Part shown: positions 24,724 through 44,063 of the stretch, one piece after another
Layout of the letters: the number at the start of each line of letters is the position of its first letter
Position numbering within the stretch: position 1 is the first letter of the stretch
Virus record (IMG/VR): IMGVR_UViG_2698536573_000002
Source of the DNA: a virus
Lineage: Duplodnaviria > Heunggongvirae > Uroviricota > Caudoviricetes
Strand: one strand, 5' to 3'
DNA: 44,146 nucleotides
The notes under the pieces: model-generated
What the model saw: the letters and a program-made list of their open reading frames with translations, nothing else
Databases searched by the model: none
Told to the model about the DNA's origin: nothing
Made by a program: the position numbers and the translations under genes

Positions 24724-24799
24724 TGGTGGCCCCTACCGGATTTGAACCGATGACCGTGCGATTATGAGTCGCCTGCTCTAACCACTAAGCTAAGGGGCC
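24724..24799 (-). tRNA. tRNA with anticodon CAT, ileX/ileY-like (tRNA-Ile2 type; Met not excluded)
   Basis: 76-nt cloverleaf: acceptor GGCCCCT/AGGGGCC, D-arm GCTTAGTGGTTAGAGC, anticodon loop CTCATAA, T-arm GGTTCAAATCC, encoded CCA. Confidence 0.8.
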
Positions 24800-32494: not shown

Positions 32495-32512
32495 TTAACT
32501 AACTCCAGTTAA

Positions 32513-32629
32513 ACCACGATATGTGGTATTAAAACCACAAATCGTGAGTTTTTCAATGGGAAAACAAAAAATAACCTTCTATTTGTGGTCTACCTCTCGT
32601 CTTGCCGTGTGAAAACCACTAAATGTGGT
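32513..32629. promoter_or_regulatory. immunity-region operators, consensus ACCAC-N5-GTGGT
   Basis: accacgatatgtggt 32513-32527, accacaaatcgtgag 32534-32548 (imperfect), half-site gtggt 32585-32589, accactaaatgtggt 32615-32629, between divergent regulator genes. Confidence 0.6.
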
Positions 32630-32666
32630 AATGTATAAATAACCCCCCATTCACGATTGATGAGAA

Positions 32667-33329
32667 ATGAAAAGCAACGACGAGAACATCAAGAAAGAAA
32701 TAGGTCTGCGCATTCAGACTCTACGGAAACAATCCGGCATGACTGCCGGAGATCTCCAGCAAGTCACTGGAATAGGCTTAAGCACCTTGCAGAACTATGA
32801 GGCCGGATTAAGACAACCATCTATACCTGCCATCAAGAAAATCGCGCACGCCCTGAAAGCATCAGCGCCTTATATCGCGTGCTTAACAGATAACCCGTTC
32901 CCACCCCAGAATACTAACGCTCCTGTTATTCCTGGGCTTGTAGCTATAAAAAATGACATAGCATCGCACGCCGGAGAAAAGCCAGTGCTGGCGATAGAAC
33001 AGGAGATTCTACGAAGCAAGAACATCAACCCATCGTCTCTGTCTGTTCTCCAGAGCAACGATGAGCTAAAGCTAATGTCACCAACAATATCCCCTGGCTC
33101 CCAAGTCCTGATTAATACAGACGATACAGAGATTCATGAGGGGATCTATGCCCTTGAAGACAGAAATGGCCTGGTTGTTTTGAGGCACTGTAGAGTCATA
33201 CCGGGTGACAATGCTGTTATGCTGTCAACCGAAAGGGATGCTGAAATGAACACTAAGCATCTGAATAACGAGGAATTTAAGCGTTATAAAGTTCTTGGCC
33301 GCGTAGTTAGTGTTGTCAACTGGTTATGA
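32667..33329 (+). CDS. CI-like prophage repressor (XRE-type HTH with LexA/S24-like C-terminal domain)
   Basis: 220 aa; N-terminal HTH (LRKQSGMTAGDLQQVTGIGLSTLQNYEAG), C-terminal domain with Ser/Lys candidates (LMSPT ... KVLGRVV). Confidence 0.65.
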   Translation: MKSNDENIKKEIGLRIQTLRKQSGMTAGDLQQVTGIGLSTLQNYEAGLRQPSIPAIKKIAHALKASAPYIACLTDNPFPPQNTNAPVIPGLVAIKNDIASHAGEKPVLAIEQEILRSKNINPSSLSVLQSNDELKLMSPTISPGSQVLINTDDTEIHEGIYALEDRNGLVVLRHCRVIPGDNAVMLSTERDAEMNTKHLNNEEFKRYKVLGRVVSVVNWL

Positions 33330-33371: not shown

Positions 33372-33386
33372 ACCACGCTTTGTGGT
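33372..33386. promoter_or_regulatory. additional ACCAC-N5-GTGGT operator downstream of repressor gene
   Basis: accacgctttgtggt, perfect half-sites. Confidence 0.5.
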
Positions 33387-33930: not shown

Positions 33931-33946
33931 CATGGAGTCTCGACAA

Positions 33947-34600
33947 ATGACTATATCTGTAGGTATTTTCAACGGAAAAGGCGGCGTAACCAAATCAACC
34001 ATTGCTCGTGCTTTAGCAGTTGCTTATGCAAAGGCTGGCTGGAATGTATGCCTGATCGATATGGATGTGCTTAACGGAACGGTAACGCGTTGGGTACAAC
34101 GCAGAATGGCCAACAATATCGAACCTGCAATCGCGGCGCAGCCGTGCGGCACGCCATCACAAGTCCAGAAAATCATCGAATCAGAAGTATACGACCTGGT
34201 TATCGTTGATGGCGGTGCCTACGCATCTGAATCAGTACCGAAGCTCTCTGAATTTCTGGATATGGTTATTTTGCCAACCAGATTCTCTACCGATGACCTG
34301 GAAACCACCGTTAACACAGCTCACGGCATCGTTAAAAAGGGTGTACCAATCAAGAAAATTTGCATGGTGTTTTCCGGCGCGGCTGAAAACGAAGCTGACT
34401 ATATTGAAGCCCAAGAGTACCTGGCTAATACGCCATACTTTGTTGTCGATAAGTACATTCCCCACAAGCCAGCTCTGAGCAAAGCTCAGGATAAAGGCTT
34501 AAGCCTCATTGAGTGCTCATACGTTGCGCCACGCAAAAAAGCAGACGACGTTATTCAGGGGATTATCAACCAGCTTGAGGCTCTGACTACTGCCGCGTAA
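33947..34600 (+). CDS. ParA/ParF-type partition ATPase
   Basis: Deviant Walker A GIFNGKGGVTKST; start at second ATG (GGAG 9 nt upstream); ORF from 33932. Confidence 0.8.
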   Translation: MTISVGIFNGKGGVTKSTIARALAVAYAKAGWNVCLIDMDVLNGTVTRWVQRRMANNIEPAIAAQPCGTPSQVQKIIESEVYDLVIVDGGAYASESVPKLSEFLDMVILPTRFSTDDLETTVNTAHGIVKKGVPIKKICMVFSGAAENEADYIEAQEYLANTPYFVVDKYIPHKPALSKAQDKGLSLIECSYVAPRKKADDVIQGIINQLEALTTAA

Positions 34601-35112: not shown

Positions 35113-35136
35113 ATAAAAAAGGCCCCCGAAGGGGCC
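35113..35136 (-). terminator. intrinsic terminator (minus-strand orientation)
   Basis: ggcccc-cgaa-ggggcc hairpin followed by U6 on minus strand, directly after small ORF 35143-35265. Confidence 0.5.
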
Positions 35137-35142
35137 TAATCG

Positions 35143-35265
35143 CTACTTGCTGCTAATGTTTATCGTCACATTCAGAGCGTTATCAGTAATCTTCCAACCC
35201 TCTCCATGTGGCGTAAACAAAGCCCCAGTAACAACGATAAAAATACACATGTAGTATTTTTTCAT
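35143..35265 (-). CDS. small hydrophobic peptide (40 aa)
   Basis: MKKYYMCIFIVVTGALFTPHGEGWKITDNALNVTINISSK; RBS AAGGG; own terminator. Confidence 0.35.
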   Translation of the reverse strand: MKKYYMCIFIVVTGALFTPHGEGWKITDNALNVTINISSK

Positions 35266-35655
35266 TGTGTGGCCCTTACAGGCCGTTTCACGGCATCCCC
35301 ACCGACGAAAATGACGCGAGAGCAAGCACGCTGTTTGTGCCTGCGTGGTACGGCAAGTGGATAATCCTTTCCTGAAAGTCAGTGCCCGGGTGCGAATCGG
35401 CGGAAAGGCCCCAAGCCATATTACACGTCATACCCTTCATAATGAAGGAATAAAAAACGCTTTTATTACATGAGATTACACGTAAATAAGTTAAAAACCT
35501 TCATTTTGCATGAGCTAATGAGCTAAATTTTTTTATATGAATAGTGGACTATTCACCTCAGTTAGGTAAGAATGTAGTTGCTGTTTGTGCTTGCGTGGTT
35601 GTATTAGTACAACGACGTTATGCTGAAAGGACCGCGAATCCGATCAGCACGAAAG

Positions 35656-36372: not shown

Positions 36373-36387
36373 CCCACACTATGTGGT
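36373..36387. promoter_or_regulatory. ACCAC-N5-GTGGT-like operator upstream of antirepressor operon
   Basis: cccacactatgtggt (9/10 half-site match). Confidence 0.45.
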
Positions 36388-36419: not shown

Positions 36420-36521
36420 AATGCGCCATTGGTGGACACTTTCCGAGCCGTAGCAAAATCTACGGTCGGGATTGGAACCCCGATAATCATCATGGCGCAT
36501 ACCGCGTTAGCGGTTTTTTTA
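36420..36521 (+). ncRNA. candidate small regulatory RNA (c4-like) upstream of antirepressor operon
   Basis: TTGACA at 36412-36417; terminator accgc-gtta-gcggt + T7 at 36501-36520; short elements complementary to leader near 36603-36634. Confidence 0.3.
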
Positions 36522-36685
36522 TGCGTAAAGCACTGCTACACCCAAATTATGGTGGGGCGTGCGGGGGAGTCGTAAGACTCGCCGGATTCCATGGTGACCG
36601 GTAGTTCCAACCCTGTACGTCTCACCACCCAATGATTGGAACCAGACGGTGGTGAGTATCCTTAACCTTTAAGGGAACTATCACC

Positions 36686-40240: not shown

Positions 40241-40540
40241 TCAGATGTTAAACGCTATTCGTTTTCCTGTGGGAAGCTCAACATCCAGGCTTAATTTGCC
40301 TCCCATAGCTTCAACGTAACGCTTTAATGTCGCCAGCTTTAAATCATTTCCGCGCTGCTCCAGCTTTGTTACTGCTGGCTGGCTTATACCCATCGCCTCA
40401 GCAACCTGCTTTTGTGATAACTGGAGTTCTTCACGCATCATCTGCAAGCCGACCTCAAGAATCATCTCATCTGCCATTTCTTTAATTCGCGCCTGGCTTT
40501 CCGGTGAACGGCTGGCAATCACCTCATCTAATGTTCTCAT
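40241..40540 (-). CDS. HTH antitoxin (HigA-like)
   Basis: 99 aa; LQLSQKQVAEAMGISQPAVTKLEQ and C-terminal LATLKRYVEAMGGKLSLDV. Confidence 0.55.
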   Translation of the reverse strand: MRTLDEVIASRSPESQARIKEMADEMILEVGLQMMREELQLSQKQVAEAMGISQPAVTKLEQRGNDLKLATLKRYVEAMGGKLSLDVELPTGKRIAFNI

Positions 40541-40893
40541 TACTTGCTCTCCAGTGTGTTCAGATGTGCTGCAAACTCATCCTCAGCTATACGCACCAGT
40601 TTTTTATAAAACCGCTTATCGTTACTTTTGTCTCCTGCACAAAGAACGATAGCCCGGCGAATCGGATCGAACGCATAAAAGGCTCTTATCGGACGGCCAG
40701 AAAACTGAACGCGAAGCTCTTTCATATTTTTGTACCGAGAACCTTTTACGGTATCGGCATATGGCCTGGGTAACTCAGGTCCGTAAACCTGTAGCTTTTT
40801 CAAATCAGCCAAAACCTTTTCCTGAAGAGCGTCTTCTTGCTCATTTAGCCAGTCGTCAAATCGCTGGCTAAAAAGTACCGTCCACATGCTCAA
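40540..40893 (-). CDS. RelE/HigB-family toxin (Gp49-like)
   Basis: 117 aa; toxin-first order with overlapping stop/start; TVKGSRYKNMKELRVQFSGRPIRAFYAFDPIRRAIVL. Confidence 0.55.
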   Translation of the reverse strand: MSMWTVLFSQRFDDWLNEQEDALQEKVLADLKKLQVYGPELPRPYADTVKGSRYKNMKELRVQFSGRPIRAFYAFDPIRRAIVLCAGDKSNDKRFYKKLVRIAEDEFAAHLNTLESK

Positions 40894-41131: not shown

Positions 41132-41422
41132 CTATTTTTGTGACTTTACTCCTGGCATATGGACTTCCCAGCGACGAATCCCCATAGCTGCGCAAAAATC
41201 AGCCACATAATTCAATCCCGCCCATTCGCGGATACCACCACGGGCTTTTTCAATGAAAACGGCAATCCCTTTTTTATTGAGAGCAAAAAGCCGCCAGCTT
41301 TTTGTCACTTCGTCCTGGGTAGCCACAACACAAGTGAAAGCTCCCATGCGATACAGGTCCAAGAACTCTTTGCGTGTTTTGCGTACAAGTTCCATAACAA
41401 ACCTCATATTTGCATGTTTCAA
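41132..41422 (-). CDS. hypothetical protein (second gene of two-gene module beside ori)
   Basis: 96 aa; start overlaps upstream gene stop. Confidence 0.35.
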   Translation of the reverse strand: MKHANMRFVMELVRKTRKEFLDLYRMGAFTCVVATQDEVTKSWRLFALNKKGIAVFIEKARGGIREWAGLNYVADFCAAMGIRRWEVHMPGVKSQK

Positions 41423-41706
41423 ACATCTGTTTTGTTATCAATGAAGATTAACCCTAACCCAGCGAAGTAACACAGCAGCGCCCAGGCTGCATACGGAATG
41501 CTGGATCTGGATGTGGACTCCTTTAACATCTGCCAGTTGCGAACATTGCGACTATCTTTTAAGCCTAGTTTTTTGGCCAACTGCGAGCCGCTCATTCCGG
41601 TCAGGCCAATGACTGCCCGAACTTCTCCACATGTAGGAGATTCCCATTCATCCGCTTTTTTTAAACAAGCCGGATTCAACATTTTTAAAACAGTATCTTT
41701 ATCCAT
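41419..41706 (-). CDS. small HTH-like protein with C-terminal TM helix
   Basis: Start at third ATG (GGAG 6 nt upstream); LTGMSGSQLAKKLGL then IPYAAWALLCYFAGLGLIFI. Confidence 0.35.
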   Translation of the reverse strand: MDKDTVLKMLNPACLKKADEWESPTCGEVRAVIGLTGMSGSQLAKKLGLKDSRNVRNWQMLKESTSRSSIPYAAWALLCYFAGLGLIFIDNKTDV

Positions 41707-41759
41707 AACCATCTCCATTTATTATATCTACGATGGTAGGAAATCTTTTCCTATGTGGC

Positions 41760-42349
41760 AATAGAAATTTACTACATTGCGTATAAGACAAGTTTTCTAT
41801 GTCTAATAGAAAAGGATGTTTCTTACGTTTTGTCGCGTTCTGATTGCTACTGTGTGCGTATTTATCGACGTTTATTGATAAGGTCCGTCCCTTCCTCCTG
41901 CAAAGCCCGGCCGTAGGCCTTATTTCGGCCTTATATAAATTGATTTTGTATAGTTCGAAACGCGCCGTTTCGAAAAGGATGATCAGGCTGCTCCATGCCT
42001 CCGGCAAGTGCCGGAGGAGGTATATTTGAGCGTAGCGACTCGAACCGGCGCGAGCTTTAGCTCGCTGCAAGGGCGAACATATTCACAGGCAAAGCCTGCG
42101 TAAGTTAAATAAAGAAAGTCTTAATAAAAGAAAGTGATTTTGCATTTATTTGTTTAGTGCATCTATTATAAAAAACCATTTGCATATACATATCAAAACT
42201 GTGGATAACTTTATTATCCGATGCCTGTAAAGGCGATATTTTTGCTGTGTTCAGGTTTAGAGAAAATTAATTTAGACTATTTTTTGAACAGATATTTTAT
42301 TGCGACGTAGATAATCCTCCGGTAAAACCGGATTCATCATTCAGGTGGG
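41760..42349. other. putative plasmid replication origin region downstream of repA
   Basis: AT-rich; DnaA box TTATCCACA (revcomp of 42200-42208); palindromes ttcgaaacg-cgc-cgtttcgaa and cctccggca-ag-tgccggagg near 41950-42015. Confidence 0.45.
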
Positions 42350-43198
42350 TTAATGTTGGAGTGATTTCCAGGTCTTTCTTAGCCTGTTATAACGCTGCTC
42401 AACGAGGGATCGTAAATATGCAAGGTCAGCACCTGGATACATGCCATCAGCAAATTCCTGGCTAACCTCTCTAGTGATTTGATGACGAAGTTCGGCCTCT
42501 CCCTTTTCCCGGACAAGACGCGCAGCTCTCTCCGCTGCTTTCTGTTTTGCCTTTATCTCTCTGGCCGTCTTCCTCTGGCGCCATACATTCTCCATCTGCT
42601 CCTGAATAACAATACGCTTATAATCAGCCTCCGTTATCGCTTTTTTAAGCCGTTCGCTATTCTTCGCATTGAAGTAATTAAGTTTCTGGCTAACCGCACG
42701 TCTCCATGCTTGTTCAGTAATACCAACGGTTTCCAGCAGTTGATCACGAATCTCTATTTTCGCTGGCCAATACTGTTTATTCACCCGATCCCAGCGACGT
42801 TCATAATCAATAAAACCTAACGCTTTCAGTTGCGACAACGCCCTTGTACAGCGCGTTATAGACTTGTTCCCAGCTTCGGATACGGTAGACAGGCCGCAAA
42901 AATCAGCCAACGCCTCAGCACTAGCCAGAACCCGCTTAGAAATGATGTTTACATGGTGCAAAATCGCAGCGATCACAGCATTAATCGCCCGACGACGATG
43001 CTCGTTTATCCGGCGCTTCCGCTCTGACGGTTGATTAACGTAGAACGCAACCTCACACGTAAGATCACGCCCATTAATGCGCTGTAAAGCATCAGATAAC
43101 ACCAGCGGCAGCTTGTGCGTATGGTGCTTTGGAGGCTGGAACTCCGGCGACAAATTACAAACGTAAGCTGAACGTAGAGACGGCATTGGTCTATCCAT
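42350..43198 (-). CDS. repA: replication initiation protein, IncFII RepA1 family
   Basis: Contains KSITRCTRALSQLKALGFIDY block resembling R100/R1 RepA1 as I recall it; ORF open to 43327, internal ATG at 43198 gives ~283 aa; upstream part is leader targeted by antisense RNA. Confidence 0.7.
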   Translation of the reverse strand: MDRPMPSLRSAYVCNLSPEFQPPKHHTHKLPLVLSDALQRINGRDLTCEVAFYVNQPSERKRRINEHRRRAINAVIAAILHHVNIISKRVLASAEALADFCGLSTVSEAGNKSITRCTRALSQLKALGFIDYERRWDRVNKQYWPAKIEIRDQLLETVGITEQAWRRAVSQKLNYFNAKNSERLKKAITEADYKRIVIQEQMENVWRQRKTAREIKAKQKAAERAARLVREKGEAELRHQITREVSQEFADGMYPGADLAYLRSLVEQRYNRLRKTWKSLQH

Positions 43199-43242
43199 AT
43201 GTTCGCTCTTGCGTCCACGGAAAACCAACGTATAATGGGAGT

Positions 43243-43320
43243 TGTCGAGGCGCCCATGGTTAGTTGTTGGTTTTCCGTGGATGTCGCAAGAAGCCCGCAG
43301 ATTTATCTGCGGGCTTTTTG
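43243..43320 (+). ncRNA. antisense RNA to repA leader (CopA/RNAI-like)
   Basis: Plus-strand promoter TTGCGT-16bp-TATAAT (43209-43236); terminator gcccgcag-atttat-ctgcgggc + T-run at 43293-43323; fully within repA leader. Confidence 0.55.
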
Positions 43321-43362
43321 TTTCCATATCTGGTCACTTTCCAACCAGACACCCACAATCAT

Positions 43363-43379
43363 AACCACGTTACGTGGTT
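43363..43379. promoter_or_regulatory. ACCAC-N5-GTGGT palindrome in repA promoter region
   Basis: aaccacgttacgtggtt, perfect, ~36 bp upstream of repA leader ORF start. Confidence 0.5.
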
Positions 43380-43508
43380 TTGAGAGAACTCTACCACAAC
43401 ACTTTCGGTCATGCACGAAGTCTCTCACTGATCGAACGATAATCCACCAGTAAAAGGATCTAAATTGGATCTCGTTTTGCGAGCATCATACTACTGGCCT
43501 AACTCCAG

Positions 43509-44063
43509 TCAATGATTCCCAGCCGGAAACCTGCGGTAAAGCGTGGATAAAGTAACATCGAAGATAATCGCTATCCGCTTACGTGAAACACCATTCGCAA
43601 TAAGCCTTCCGATCTGTTCCCATTGCTCTGGTGACAGCTTTGAGCGGCGTCCTCCGATCCTGCCGTTAGCCCTTGCCACCGCCAATCCTGCACGCGTTCT
43701 TTCAATCATATTTTCCCGCTCCATCTCTGCGACTGCACTCAGCATCGTGTAGGCAAAGCGGCCAATTGAAGTGCTAATTTTTATCCCTTCCGTAATCGAA
43801 ATAAACTCAATGTTGTTTGATAAAAAATGGTTAAGTAAATCAACAAGATGAATCAGGGAACGCCCCATTCGGTCCAGCTTCCAGACAATAACCGTATCGC
43901 CCGGCCGTAACACCTTAAGTAGCTTATCAAGTCCTGGTCGTTTTGATTTAGCACCGGATATTTTATCTTCAAAAATCCGGTCACATCCTAAACTCCTGAG
44001 CGCCTCCAGTTGTAATTCCAAATTCTGGTCAAAAGTTGACACCCTCGCATAACCATATTGCAT
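43509..44063 (-). CDS. serine recombinase, DNA invertase (Gin/Cin/Pin/Hin family)
   Basis: 184 aa; GYARVSTFDQ catalytic Ser, VWKLDRMGRS, AEMERE, GRIGGR, C-terminal HTH LSTLYRR. Confidence 0.8.
   Translation of the reverse strand: MQYGYARVSTFDQNLELQLEALRSLGCDRIFEDKISGAKSKRPGLDKLLKVLRPGDTVIVWKLDRMGRSLIHLVDLLNHFLSNNIEFISITEGIKISTSIGRFAYTMLSAVAEMERENMIERTRAGLAVARANGRIGGRRSKLSPEQWEQIGRLIANGVSRKRIAIIFDVTLSTLYRRFPAGNH

Follow-up and report, generated by a model that had tools for sequence, protein, structure and literature searches.

Prophage repressors control the replication genes of known phage-plasmids, with C1 acting at repL of P1 and CB acting at repA of N15. Antisense RNAs that nucleate through a single-stranded 5' end and a target loop, or that refold a leader, include IS10 RNA-IN/RNA-OUT, hok/Sok and those of pT181, pIP501 and pSK41. 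In the IncFII plasmid R1, the origin with its DnaA box lies downstream of repA (PMC5883639), and in IncL/M plasmids an RNAI of ~77 nt represses translation post-transcriptionally (PMC8125031). Here we analyze the repA replicon at positions 41,760 to 43,508 of the IMG/VR virus record IMGVR_UViG_2698536573_000002, a Caudoviricetes sequence of 44,146 nt that is referred to as the window. A sequence-only reading of the window had proposed an IncFII-type replicon with a CopA-like antisense RNA. The replicon is best described as an antisense-controlled type of the IncFII/IncL-M superfamily, with a rebuilt antisense/target pair and a prophage-repressor operator instead of CopB. We consider it probable that a superfamily RepA, a downstream origin, control by a countertranscript RNA (ctRNA) of ~80 nt and a CI-type operator at the proximal repA promoter act together in this replicon.

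A distant IncFII/IncL-M superfamily initiator on a phage-plasmid

The RepA protein matches the Pfam family PF02387 IncFII_repA (1.3e-43, 149.8 bits, profile positions 2-272 of 275) and, over the full profile length, NCBIfam NF040977 RepA_IncFII_LM (232.2 bits, cut-off 70), which places it in the IncFII family as the sequence-only reading had supposed. The designation does not hold in the strict sense. RepA scores 79.3 bits against the NCBIfam equivalog TIGR03474 incFII_RepA, below the cut-off of 446.9, and, over 45% of its length, shares ~32% identity with classical IncFII RepA; for these reasons RepA is, by sequence comparison, a distant superfamily member and not IncFII sensu stricto. Its best other plasmid match has 37% identity. 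The repA start at 43186 is the same in the PGAP annotation of the complete plasmid pTD225C4_47 and aligns with the N-termini of relatives. A start at the in-frame ATG at 43327 (325-aa open reading frame, ORF) was rejected, as the extension is not conserved in the relatives L007 or L008. The database cluster representative P0001 uses the long start and is 326 aa, and therefore some gene callers extend repA across the whole antisense control region (43187-43327), a region whose ctRNA has no Rfam family.

The window represents most of a 47-49 kb phage-plasmid. The 1.8 kb surrounding the replicon is 95-99% identical to 59 of the 62 matching plasmids in PLSDB, which are mostly from E. coli, are all non-mobilizable, and include plasmid NZ_CP009073.1 of E. 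coli ATCC 25922. Three Yersinia myophages isolated on Y. pestis EV76 are 98% identical in the same 1.8 kb region. The replicon is thus carried by at least 62 sequenced Enterobacteriaceae plasmids, one of them in a reference strain, and by infectious phages. The complete copy pTD225C4_47 encodes terminase, portal, capsid, contractile tail, holins, ParA, a CI-like helix-turn-helix (HTH) protein and a tail-fiber invertase; no integrase is annotated on it, and RepA is its sole annotated replication initiator. This replicon is the only recognizable one of the myovirus-type phage-plasmid. MOB-suite typing in PLSDB gives no replicon type on the three copies inspected. The replicon and its RNA were not found described in the literature, which was incompletely covered, and an earlier description is possible.

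A protein search identified RepA homologs of 81-85% and 58-63% identity. Loci of RepA homologs, a motif scan of viral contigs and two Salmonella plasmids together provided 16 distinct versions of the control region, assigned to group 1 (the window, L001, L002, L005, L007, L008, L016, L019 and L036) and group 2 (L013-L015, L017, L018, L021, L023, L024, L026 and L027). A protein-based scan and a motif scan of genome contigs gave zero matches.

A conserved origin downstream of repA

The DnaA box TGTGGATAA at 42200-42208 is a perfect consensus, located 142 nt after the repA stop codon, in the orientation of repA and adjoining an 80% A+T stretch. The box and the downstream origin had been read correctly from the sequence, and the layout is that of R1. 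Position (123-142 nt after the stop) and orientation of the box are kept in all 12 relatives; in a classical IncFII control locus, L034, its distance from the stop is 177 nt and its orientation is unchanged. The origin core is 74-80% identical even at ~60% RepA identity. Conservation extends from the DnaA box for ~170 bp in the relatives with ~60% RepA identity and for ~320 bp within group 1; no conservation is seen in the spacer that separates the box from repA. Two GC-rich hairpins at 42041-42100 (CAGGC-TTT-GCCTG and GCGAGC-TTTA-GCTCGC) show compensatory changes across relatives and are flanked by the invariant sequences CCCTTGCAGCG and CGCGCCGGTTCG; they might be a primase or single-strand initiation (G-site-like) signal. 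RepA most likely acts at this origin, 140-310 bp downstream of its gene.

Comparative evidence for a countertranscript opposite the repA leader

The TTGCGT-16-TATAAT promoter noticed in the sequence-only reading is present on the plus strand within the repA leader (Table 1). Its -35 hexamer has only three of six consensus bases, which is why a generic promoter scan did not list it; in that scan, promoter-like sites were no more frequent than in shuffled sequence. Consensus matching alone does not set the promoter apart from chance, and the case must therefore rest on comparison with relatives. None of the 16 variants departs from TATAAT, including those in which all the helices around it have been exchanged. 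The -35 comes in two forms, TTGCGT at a spacing of 16 nt and TTGCAT at a spacing of 18 nt, and the spacer sequence is wholly different between the two groups. The predicted transcripts are 78-88 nt, and all 16 variants have a short 5' tail followed by two stem-loops, SL1 and the terminator SL2, the latter having a stem of 15-16 bp, a tetraloop and a U-run. Thus the small countertranscript with its own promoter and terminator that generally marks an antisense-controlled theta replicon is predicted in each of them.

The 78-nt version of the window ctRNA has a folding energy of -36.8 kcal/mol (z = -5.8 relative to shuffles). The hairpin with T-run noted earlier exists and is larger than the 8 bp reported, with 10 perfect pairs extending to 16 (arms 43287-43302 and 43305-43320) before the T-run. 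A generic terminator scan missed SL2, probably because its stem can be extended into the T-run. In the nine group 1 sequences, 100% of SL1 and SL2 cells are paired, versus 42-53% in slid controls. One SL1 pair is present as GC, AU, GU and UG within group 1, and three SL1 pairs are G-U, which on the sense strand would be C-A mismatches. SL2 shows a compensatory AU to GC change within group 1, and its whole stem is replaced in group 2. The U-run exists on the plus strand only, with no other plus-strand gene upstream of the terminator. Because of the invariant -10, the retained -35 geometry, the covarying SL1 and SL2 and the plus-strand-only U-run, a real countertranscript opposite the repA leader is likely, and its predicted size of ~78-82 nt agrees with the ~78 nt first proposed.

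Conservation could instead reflect hairpins that act in cis, on mRNA stability, translation or protein binding, or that stop antisense noise, with the TATAAT conserved as part of a leader loop and no functional antisense RNA. The weak -35 and the lack of excess in the promoter scan would fit such an arrangement, and the covariation of the leader hairpin described below supports a sense-strand structure with or without a ctRNA. It would leave the plus-strand U-run without a gene to use it, and the G-U pairs and the four-type pair of SL1 work only on the antisense strand. Furthermore, the -35/-10 geometry is kept in a lineage with an entirely different spacer, and in L012, a relative with 63% RepA identity, the corresponding position is occupied by a classic RNAI promoter (TTGAAA-16-TATAAT). 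We therefore regard an exclusively cis-acting role as unlikely.

The sequence-only reading held the ctRNA to be CopA-like, i.e., a CopA homolog of a genuine R1/R100 IncFII replicon that kisses CopT and blocks tap translation. The Pfam match of RepA, the similar size (~80 nt) and two hairpins of the antisense RNA, and a DnaA-box origin downstream of repA as in R1 (PMC5883639) are in its favor. However, the Rfam CopA model RF00042 has no match on either strand of 41700-43560, even at E<=10, and the classical IncFII locus L034, used as positive control, scores 91.1 bits. Scans of the same region with Rfam, at gathering threshold and at E<=10, gave no CopA, PK-repBA or other plasmid antisense family; the best matches were a Thr_leader look-alike (31.8 bits, cut-off 55) and a CsrC terminator fragment. 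The terminator hairpin has a perfect stem closed by a tetraloop, with neither the bulged stem nor the 6-7 nt recognition loop, and the variable loop is in the 5' hairpin. Neither a copB nor a tap homolog nor a UUGGCG/CGCCAA loop motif was found in the window. By the covariance model the ctRNA is not a CopA homolog, and a genuine R1/R100 system, already contradicted by the covariance-model and hidden Markov model thresholds (including TIGR03474), is highly improbable.

The resemblance to R1/R100 is consequently one of general layout: the same RepA superfamily, a downstream origin starting with a DnaA box in the same orientation, a two-hairpin antisense RNA of ~80-90 nt opposite the repA leader and, perhaps, a two-promoter logic with a repressible proximal promoter. 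R1 and R100 differ from the window in having the recognition loop on the terminator hairpin and mirror-image target and antisense hairpins. In the window, the ctRNA target is the 5' half of one long hairpin, CopA homology and copB are lacking, no tap-like ORF was found, and a phage CI-type operator is located at the proximal promoter.

The predicted target is one half of a long leader hairpin

The inverted repeat noted in the leader is present and slightly longer than described, being perfect over 16 nt (43214-43229 and 43266-43281). Contrary to what had been suggested, it does not belong to the antisense RNA. The first of its arms is part of the promoter spacer and precedes the ctRNA start; the repeat can therefore fold only in the repA mRNA, where it is the middle helix of a long leader hairpin, SL-B. 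The hairpin upstream of it in the mRNA, SL-A, is the sense-strand image of the ctRNA terminator. The two groups were folded independently with RNAfold and have the same SL-A and SL-B architecture despite replaced helix sequences: across groups, SL-B has a basal helix of 7-8 bp, a middle helix of 10-16 bp and an apical stem of 5 bp. Within group 1, 98.5% of SL-B cells are paired, versus 33-47% in slid controls, four pairs have compensatory changes, and the observed covariation score was reached by none of 500 shuffles. In the cross-group MAFFT alignment (A1) the helices are misaligned; covariation was therefore counted in group 1 only, and the cross-group argument consists of the independent folds. 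Between the operator and SL-A lies a small leader hairpin, and relatives carry, by inspection, a hairpin of differing sequence at the same site.

SL-B itself contains the ctRNA promoter: its loop holds the -10, its 3' arm corresponds to the spacer, and its basal helix includes the -35. For this reason, the complementarity of the ctRNA is limited to SL-A and the 5' half of SL-B. Two contacts are predicted to be single-stranded in both RNAs: the ctRNA 5' tail with the apical loop of SL-B, and the SL1 loop with the A/C-rich internal loop. The apical loop, GCCUCGACAACUCC, is a candidate nucleation site in these models. When eight near-identical copies of a 1.17 kb region are compared, 39 columns vary, and 11 of these fall within the A/C-rich tract; the window type of SL1 loop is UUAGUUGUU, and that of L001 differs. 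Such variation is expected of a specificity determinant and may reflect one, and simple-repeat slippage would give the same result. If it is one, the variable SL1 loop provides a testable handle on incompatibility among related phage-plasmids.

The functional likeness to IS10, hok/Sok and the pT181, pIP501 and pSK41 systems would lie in the predicted tail-to-loop nucleation and in the pairing of a released arm with the start region. The replicons and RNAs are unrelated, and no terminator forms in the refolded window leader. The IncL/M plasmids pMU604 and pCTX-M3 and the I-complex (IncI-alpha, IncB and IncK) share with the window a RepA that fits RepA_IncFII_LM. Unlike them, the window has no PK-repBA match, no UUGGCG loop, no detectable pseudoknot partner and no leader peptide overlapping the start; in comparison with IncL/M it has an extra hairpin of ~85 nt, SL-B, with the ctRNA promoter in its loop.

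These comparisons bear on whether the ctRNA acts as in the IncI-complex and IncL/M, by sequestering a loop that is needed for an activating pseudoknot near the repA ribosome-binding site after translation of a leader peptide. Apart from the RepA_IncFII_LM fit, the relative L012, which has a third design of control region, speaks for this mode. Its leader matches Rfam PK-repBA RF01089, the pseudoknot region of IncL/M and IncB, with 49.3 bits (cut-off 45) and contains a UUGGCG loop, a CGCC beside the ribosome-binding site and a 15-aa leader peptide overlapping the start (GTGA); the antisense promoter of L012 lies inside this match. The leader ORFs of group 2 are ATGA-coupled to repA, and an invariant apical loop would suit a conserved partner. 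A search for pseudoknot pairing between the apical loop and the start region found no such partner in group 1: complementarity reached 3-4 bp at most, short of 5 bp, at positions that are not conserved. With no PK-repBA match and no leader peptide stopping at the repA start in the window, we consider the pseudoknot mode quite unlikely.

How the countertranscript might inhibit repA

In the model that we favor, the ctRNA would be made constitutively from the opposite-strand promoter within the leader. Its 5' tail and SL1 loop would contact the single-stranded apical and internal loops of SL-B, pairing would then spread along the 5' half of SL-B, and RepA synthesis would drop, so that ctRNA dosage would set the copy number. 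Two routes to inhibition can be envisaged. By the first (a), the released 3' arm of SL-B would refold onto the repA start region. By the second (b), the start codon of a leader ORF in the apical stem would be covered, with a tap-like need for translation through SL-B.

Route (a) was modeled by masking the ctRNA target in silico, which releases the 3' arm of SL-B to pair with the repA start region. The pairing probability from the Shine-Dalgarno (SD) sequence to the AUG rises in 12 of 12 variants, and the cost of opening the ribosome site increases by 2.1 to 11.4 kcal/mol. In nine of ten variants, the masked-state opening cost is above that of nearly all shuffled start sites (reached by 0-3 of 40). 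For route (b), the candidate leader ORF (Table 1) has its AUG at 43257-43255, in the SL-B apical stem and thus within the ctRNA target, and extends beyond the start of repA; in the five group 1 variants checked it is 32-83 aa with varying frame offsets to repA. No tap-like ORF was found in the leader, and the non-homologous ORF from 43257 ends 181 nt past the repA start and is variable in relatives.

An SD-like AAGAG followed by an upstream AUG occurs in all group 1 variants. The window and L016 have this AUG in the repA frame; in L007, L008, L019 and L036 its frame differs from that of repA. Together, the AAGAG and the AUG at 43198 are predicted to be closed in both leader states.

Several observations weigh against this model. 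The ctRNA -35 is weak and the generic promoter scan gives it no help. The covariation counts come from 7-9 related sequences per alignment, and the model does not account for why the apical loop is invariant. In the window itself the refolding is small: 14 of 40 shuffles do as well as its +2.1 kcal/mol. The conserved SD-like AAGAG is within the SL-B basal helix that the ctRNA would open, which argues against simple occlusion. The leader ORF is not preceded by an SD, does not occur in group 2 and encodes no conserved product. In addition, the operator palindrome described below could also be a hairpin of the RNA transcribed from the distal promoter. The modeled inhibitory step thus has mixed support, and we infer it, as we do ctRNA transcription and CI binding, from comparison and folding.

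In pT181- and pIP501-type plasmids, leader refolding induced by the antisense RNA attenuates transcription, and the predicted leader refolding of the window resembles theirs. The ctRNA could in this way attenuate transcription of repA, or the convergence of the repA and ctRNA promoters could produce transcriptional interference, with no effect on translation. Attenuation was rejected: in the window leader no terminator or U-run follows the alternative, masked-state hairpin, which argues against it, and sense SL-A is followed by CUUCUUGCG in the window or by UCUGCGG in group 2, both poor terminators. Control at transcription, by either route, is very unlikely.

A CI-type operator in the position of CopB

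The sequence-only reading had noted that no CopB-like gene lies upstream of repA and that a CI-type operator occupies that position. Both statements agree with the comparison. The neighbor upstream of repA is the serine invertase gene, and 43330-43508 contains no annotated or conserved small gene, its mechanically listed ORFs being unsupported ones of 32-84 aa. repA would be transcribed from two promoters, a distal one and a proximal one with an extended -10. The distal promoter has 10 of 12 consensus matches (TTGACG...TAGAAT in group 2). The proximal promoter was not listed by the consensus scan, and its elements, TGnTA[G/A]AGT and TGCATR with a 16-nt spacer, are kept in both lineages. A pair of GATC sites just downstream of the distal promoter is kept in group 1, and group 2 has three (at about 1685-1720 in L013); this cluster suggests Dam/SeqA-sensitive repA transcription.

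The palindrome ACCAC-N5-GTGGT lies nine bases after the proximal -10 and would overlap the proximal start site (about +3 to +17). It occurs four times in the window, where 0.13 occurrences are expected. Three of these copies are found on either side of the cI-like gene, at 32513 and 32615 in its divergent promoter region and at 33372-33386 just after it. In a Salmonella-type group 1 relative whose CI is 65% identical, the same motif is present at both places. Group 2 has a different palindrome at the operator position: L023 has the 11-mer TGACTACAAAA in the repA leader and two inverted copies of it in the intergenic region beside a 30%-identical cI homolog, and nowhere else. The group 2 cI region was read through L023 only, and the control region and repA of group 2 have no match in PLSDB or INPHARED; a CI search of viral contigs retrieved near-identical copies only. 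The palindrome at repA matches the operators of the element's own cI-like gene in both lineages, which supports the CI-type operator reading. The assignment, like the existence of the RNA, has a comparative basis, and binding of the cI-like protein to the operator at repA is probable. CI would thus fill the role of CopB, and its loss would de-repress repA for lytic replication.

Degenerate operator-like sites are also present within 32495-32666, between the cI-like gene and the leftward phrog_7452 gene, and looser CCAC-N5-GTGG sites occur at 36374-36386, ~60 nt upstream of the isrK/C4 RNAs, and at 517-529 near the window start. In L012, two Cro/CI-type HTH genes lie immediately upstream of repA (1468-2245), a different solution at the CopB position.

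As in P1 and N15, a repressor operator is predicted at the promoter of a replication gene of a plasmid prophage. Unlike them, the window replicon has an initiator of another family and adds a plasmid-type antisense copy control. A further-reaching proposal is that the replicon is wired into the lysis-lysogeny switch: CI would gate the proximal promoter, a ctRNA unrelated to CopA and RNAI would set the copy number by tail-to-loop nucleation and leader refolding, the SL1 loop would define incompatibility types, and a single origin would serve both low-copy maintenance and lytic amplification. Taken in full, this proposal is possible and we hold it tentatively. Should both the ctRNA and the CI operator function in the proposed way, the replicon would be a compact model in which one initiator is used for plasmid maintenance and for lytic replication.

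Rebuilding of the control region among relatives

Relatives with 58-63% RepA identity show the antisense control region in the course of being rebuilt, one (L012) with an IncL/M-type pseudoknot and the others with the window design. Group 2 has a leader ORF, 33-162 aa long, between the control module and repA. The window SL-A is similar to the base of SL I of L012 (AAAGCCCCG...CGGGGCU versus AAAGCCCGC...GCGGGCU), which suggests that the window control may descend from an L012-type (IncL/M) design.

In L013 (2016-2504), L014 (2016-2504) and L017 (112-588), the group 2 leader ORF has 158-162 aa and weak IncFII_repA similarity, and its stop overlaps the repA start (ATGA); only 33 aa of it are left in L015 and 63 aa in L018. 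The group 1 relative L036 (Salmonella plasmid CP053324.1) has a duplication, CACAGAAAAAGAAACAGAAATC, in the 5' arm of SL-B, and its repA is open for 183 codons, because of a frameshift, a pseudogene or a sequencing error. The motif GCCTCGACAMCTCCNATTATA could be used to collect further lineages from metagenome contigs.

Features of the replicon and neighboring genes

Table 1. Coordinates of the replicon, its predicted control elements and associated genes in the window
Feature	Position	Strand	Basis or remark
repA, 278 aa (stop codon included)	42350-43186	-	Pfam, NCBIfam, PGAP start, N-terminal alignment
Origin core: DnaA box, three ATGCA repeats (42141-42185), AT-rich stretch, inverted DnaA-like box, two covarying hairpins	42041-42209	-	Conservation
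ctRNA promoter (predicted), 16-nt spacer	-35 TTGCGT 43209-43214; -10 TATAAT 43231-43236	+	Sequence and conservation
ctRNA (predicted), ~78-82 nt: 5' tail, SL1, SL2	43243-43320; start estimated 43240-43244	+	Fold, 16 variants
ctRNA SL1, 15-nt loop	43249-43285	+	Fold, pair types in group 1
ctRNA SL2, intrinsic terminator: 16-pair stem, UUUA loop, U-run	43287-43320	+	Fold, compensatory change
SL-B, long leader hairpin	43207-43291	-	RNAfold in both lineages, covariation
SL-B basal helix	43285-43291 / 43207-43213	-	RNAfold
SL-B middle helix (inverted repeat)	43266-43281 / 43214-43229	-	RNAfold
SL-B apical stem	43253-43257 / 43235-43239	-	RNAfold
Invariant apical-loop motif	43238-43251	-	Conserved in groups 1 and 2; complementary to ctRNA 5' end
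Hypervariable A/C-rich tract	43258-43271		SL-B internal loop in mRNA, SL1 loop in ctRNA
Small leader hairpin, TCTGGT / ACCAGA	43329-43349	-	Sequence
SD-like AAGAG (43206-43210) and upstream AUG (43196-43198)	43196-43210	-	Motif AAGRGC.AAC..AUG in all group 1 variants
Candidate leader ORF, MGASTTPIIRW..., 83 aa	43006-43257	-	Start in all group 1 variants
CI-type operator (predicted), ACCAC-N5-GTGGT	43364-43378		Nine bases after proximal -10; about +3 to +17
Proximal repA promoter (predicted): -35 TGCATG 43410-43415, extended -10 TGG-TAGAGT 43388-43396	43388-43415	-	Conservation
Two GATC sites, 11 bp apart	43457-43471		Just downstream of distal promoter
Distal repA promoter (predicted), TTGACT-16-TATGAT	43485-43512	-	10/12 consensus matches; position conserved
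Serine invertase (Resolvase and HTH_7)	43509-44063 and beyond	-	Directly upstream of repA promoters
cI-like repressor gene, 220-aa protein	32667-33329	+	HTH_3 4.6e-11; phrog_4 repressor 3.3e-23; CI-like C-terminal domain

The serine invertase gene adjoins oppositely oriented tail-fiber and assembly genes in the complete plasmid, an arrangement of the Gin/Cin-type host-range switch. Just past the origin are two small conserved ORFs (41132-41718, minus strand) that match phrog_8351, with a weak HTH, and phrog_4595, and a Gp49/HTH pair at 40241-40893 (minus strand) resembles the HigB/HigA toxin-antitoxin system. A ParA-family ATPase gene (33932-34600, plus strand) lies beside the immunity region. 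Rfam matches at gathering level are ryfA at 35115-35413 (minus strand), isrK at 36447-36520 (plus strand), the C4 antisense RNA, a P1/P7-type immI-like module, at 36545-36632 (plus strand) and one tRNA at 24727-24799 (minus strand).

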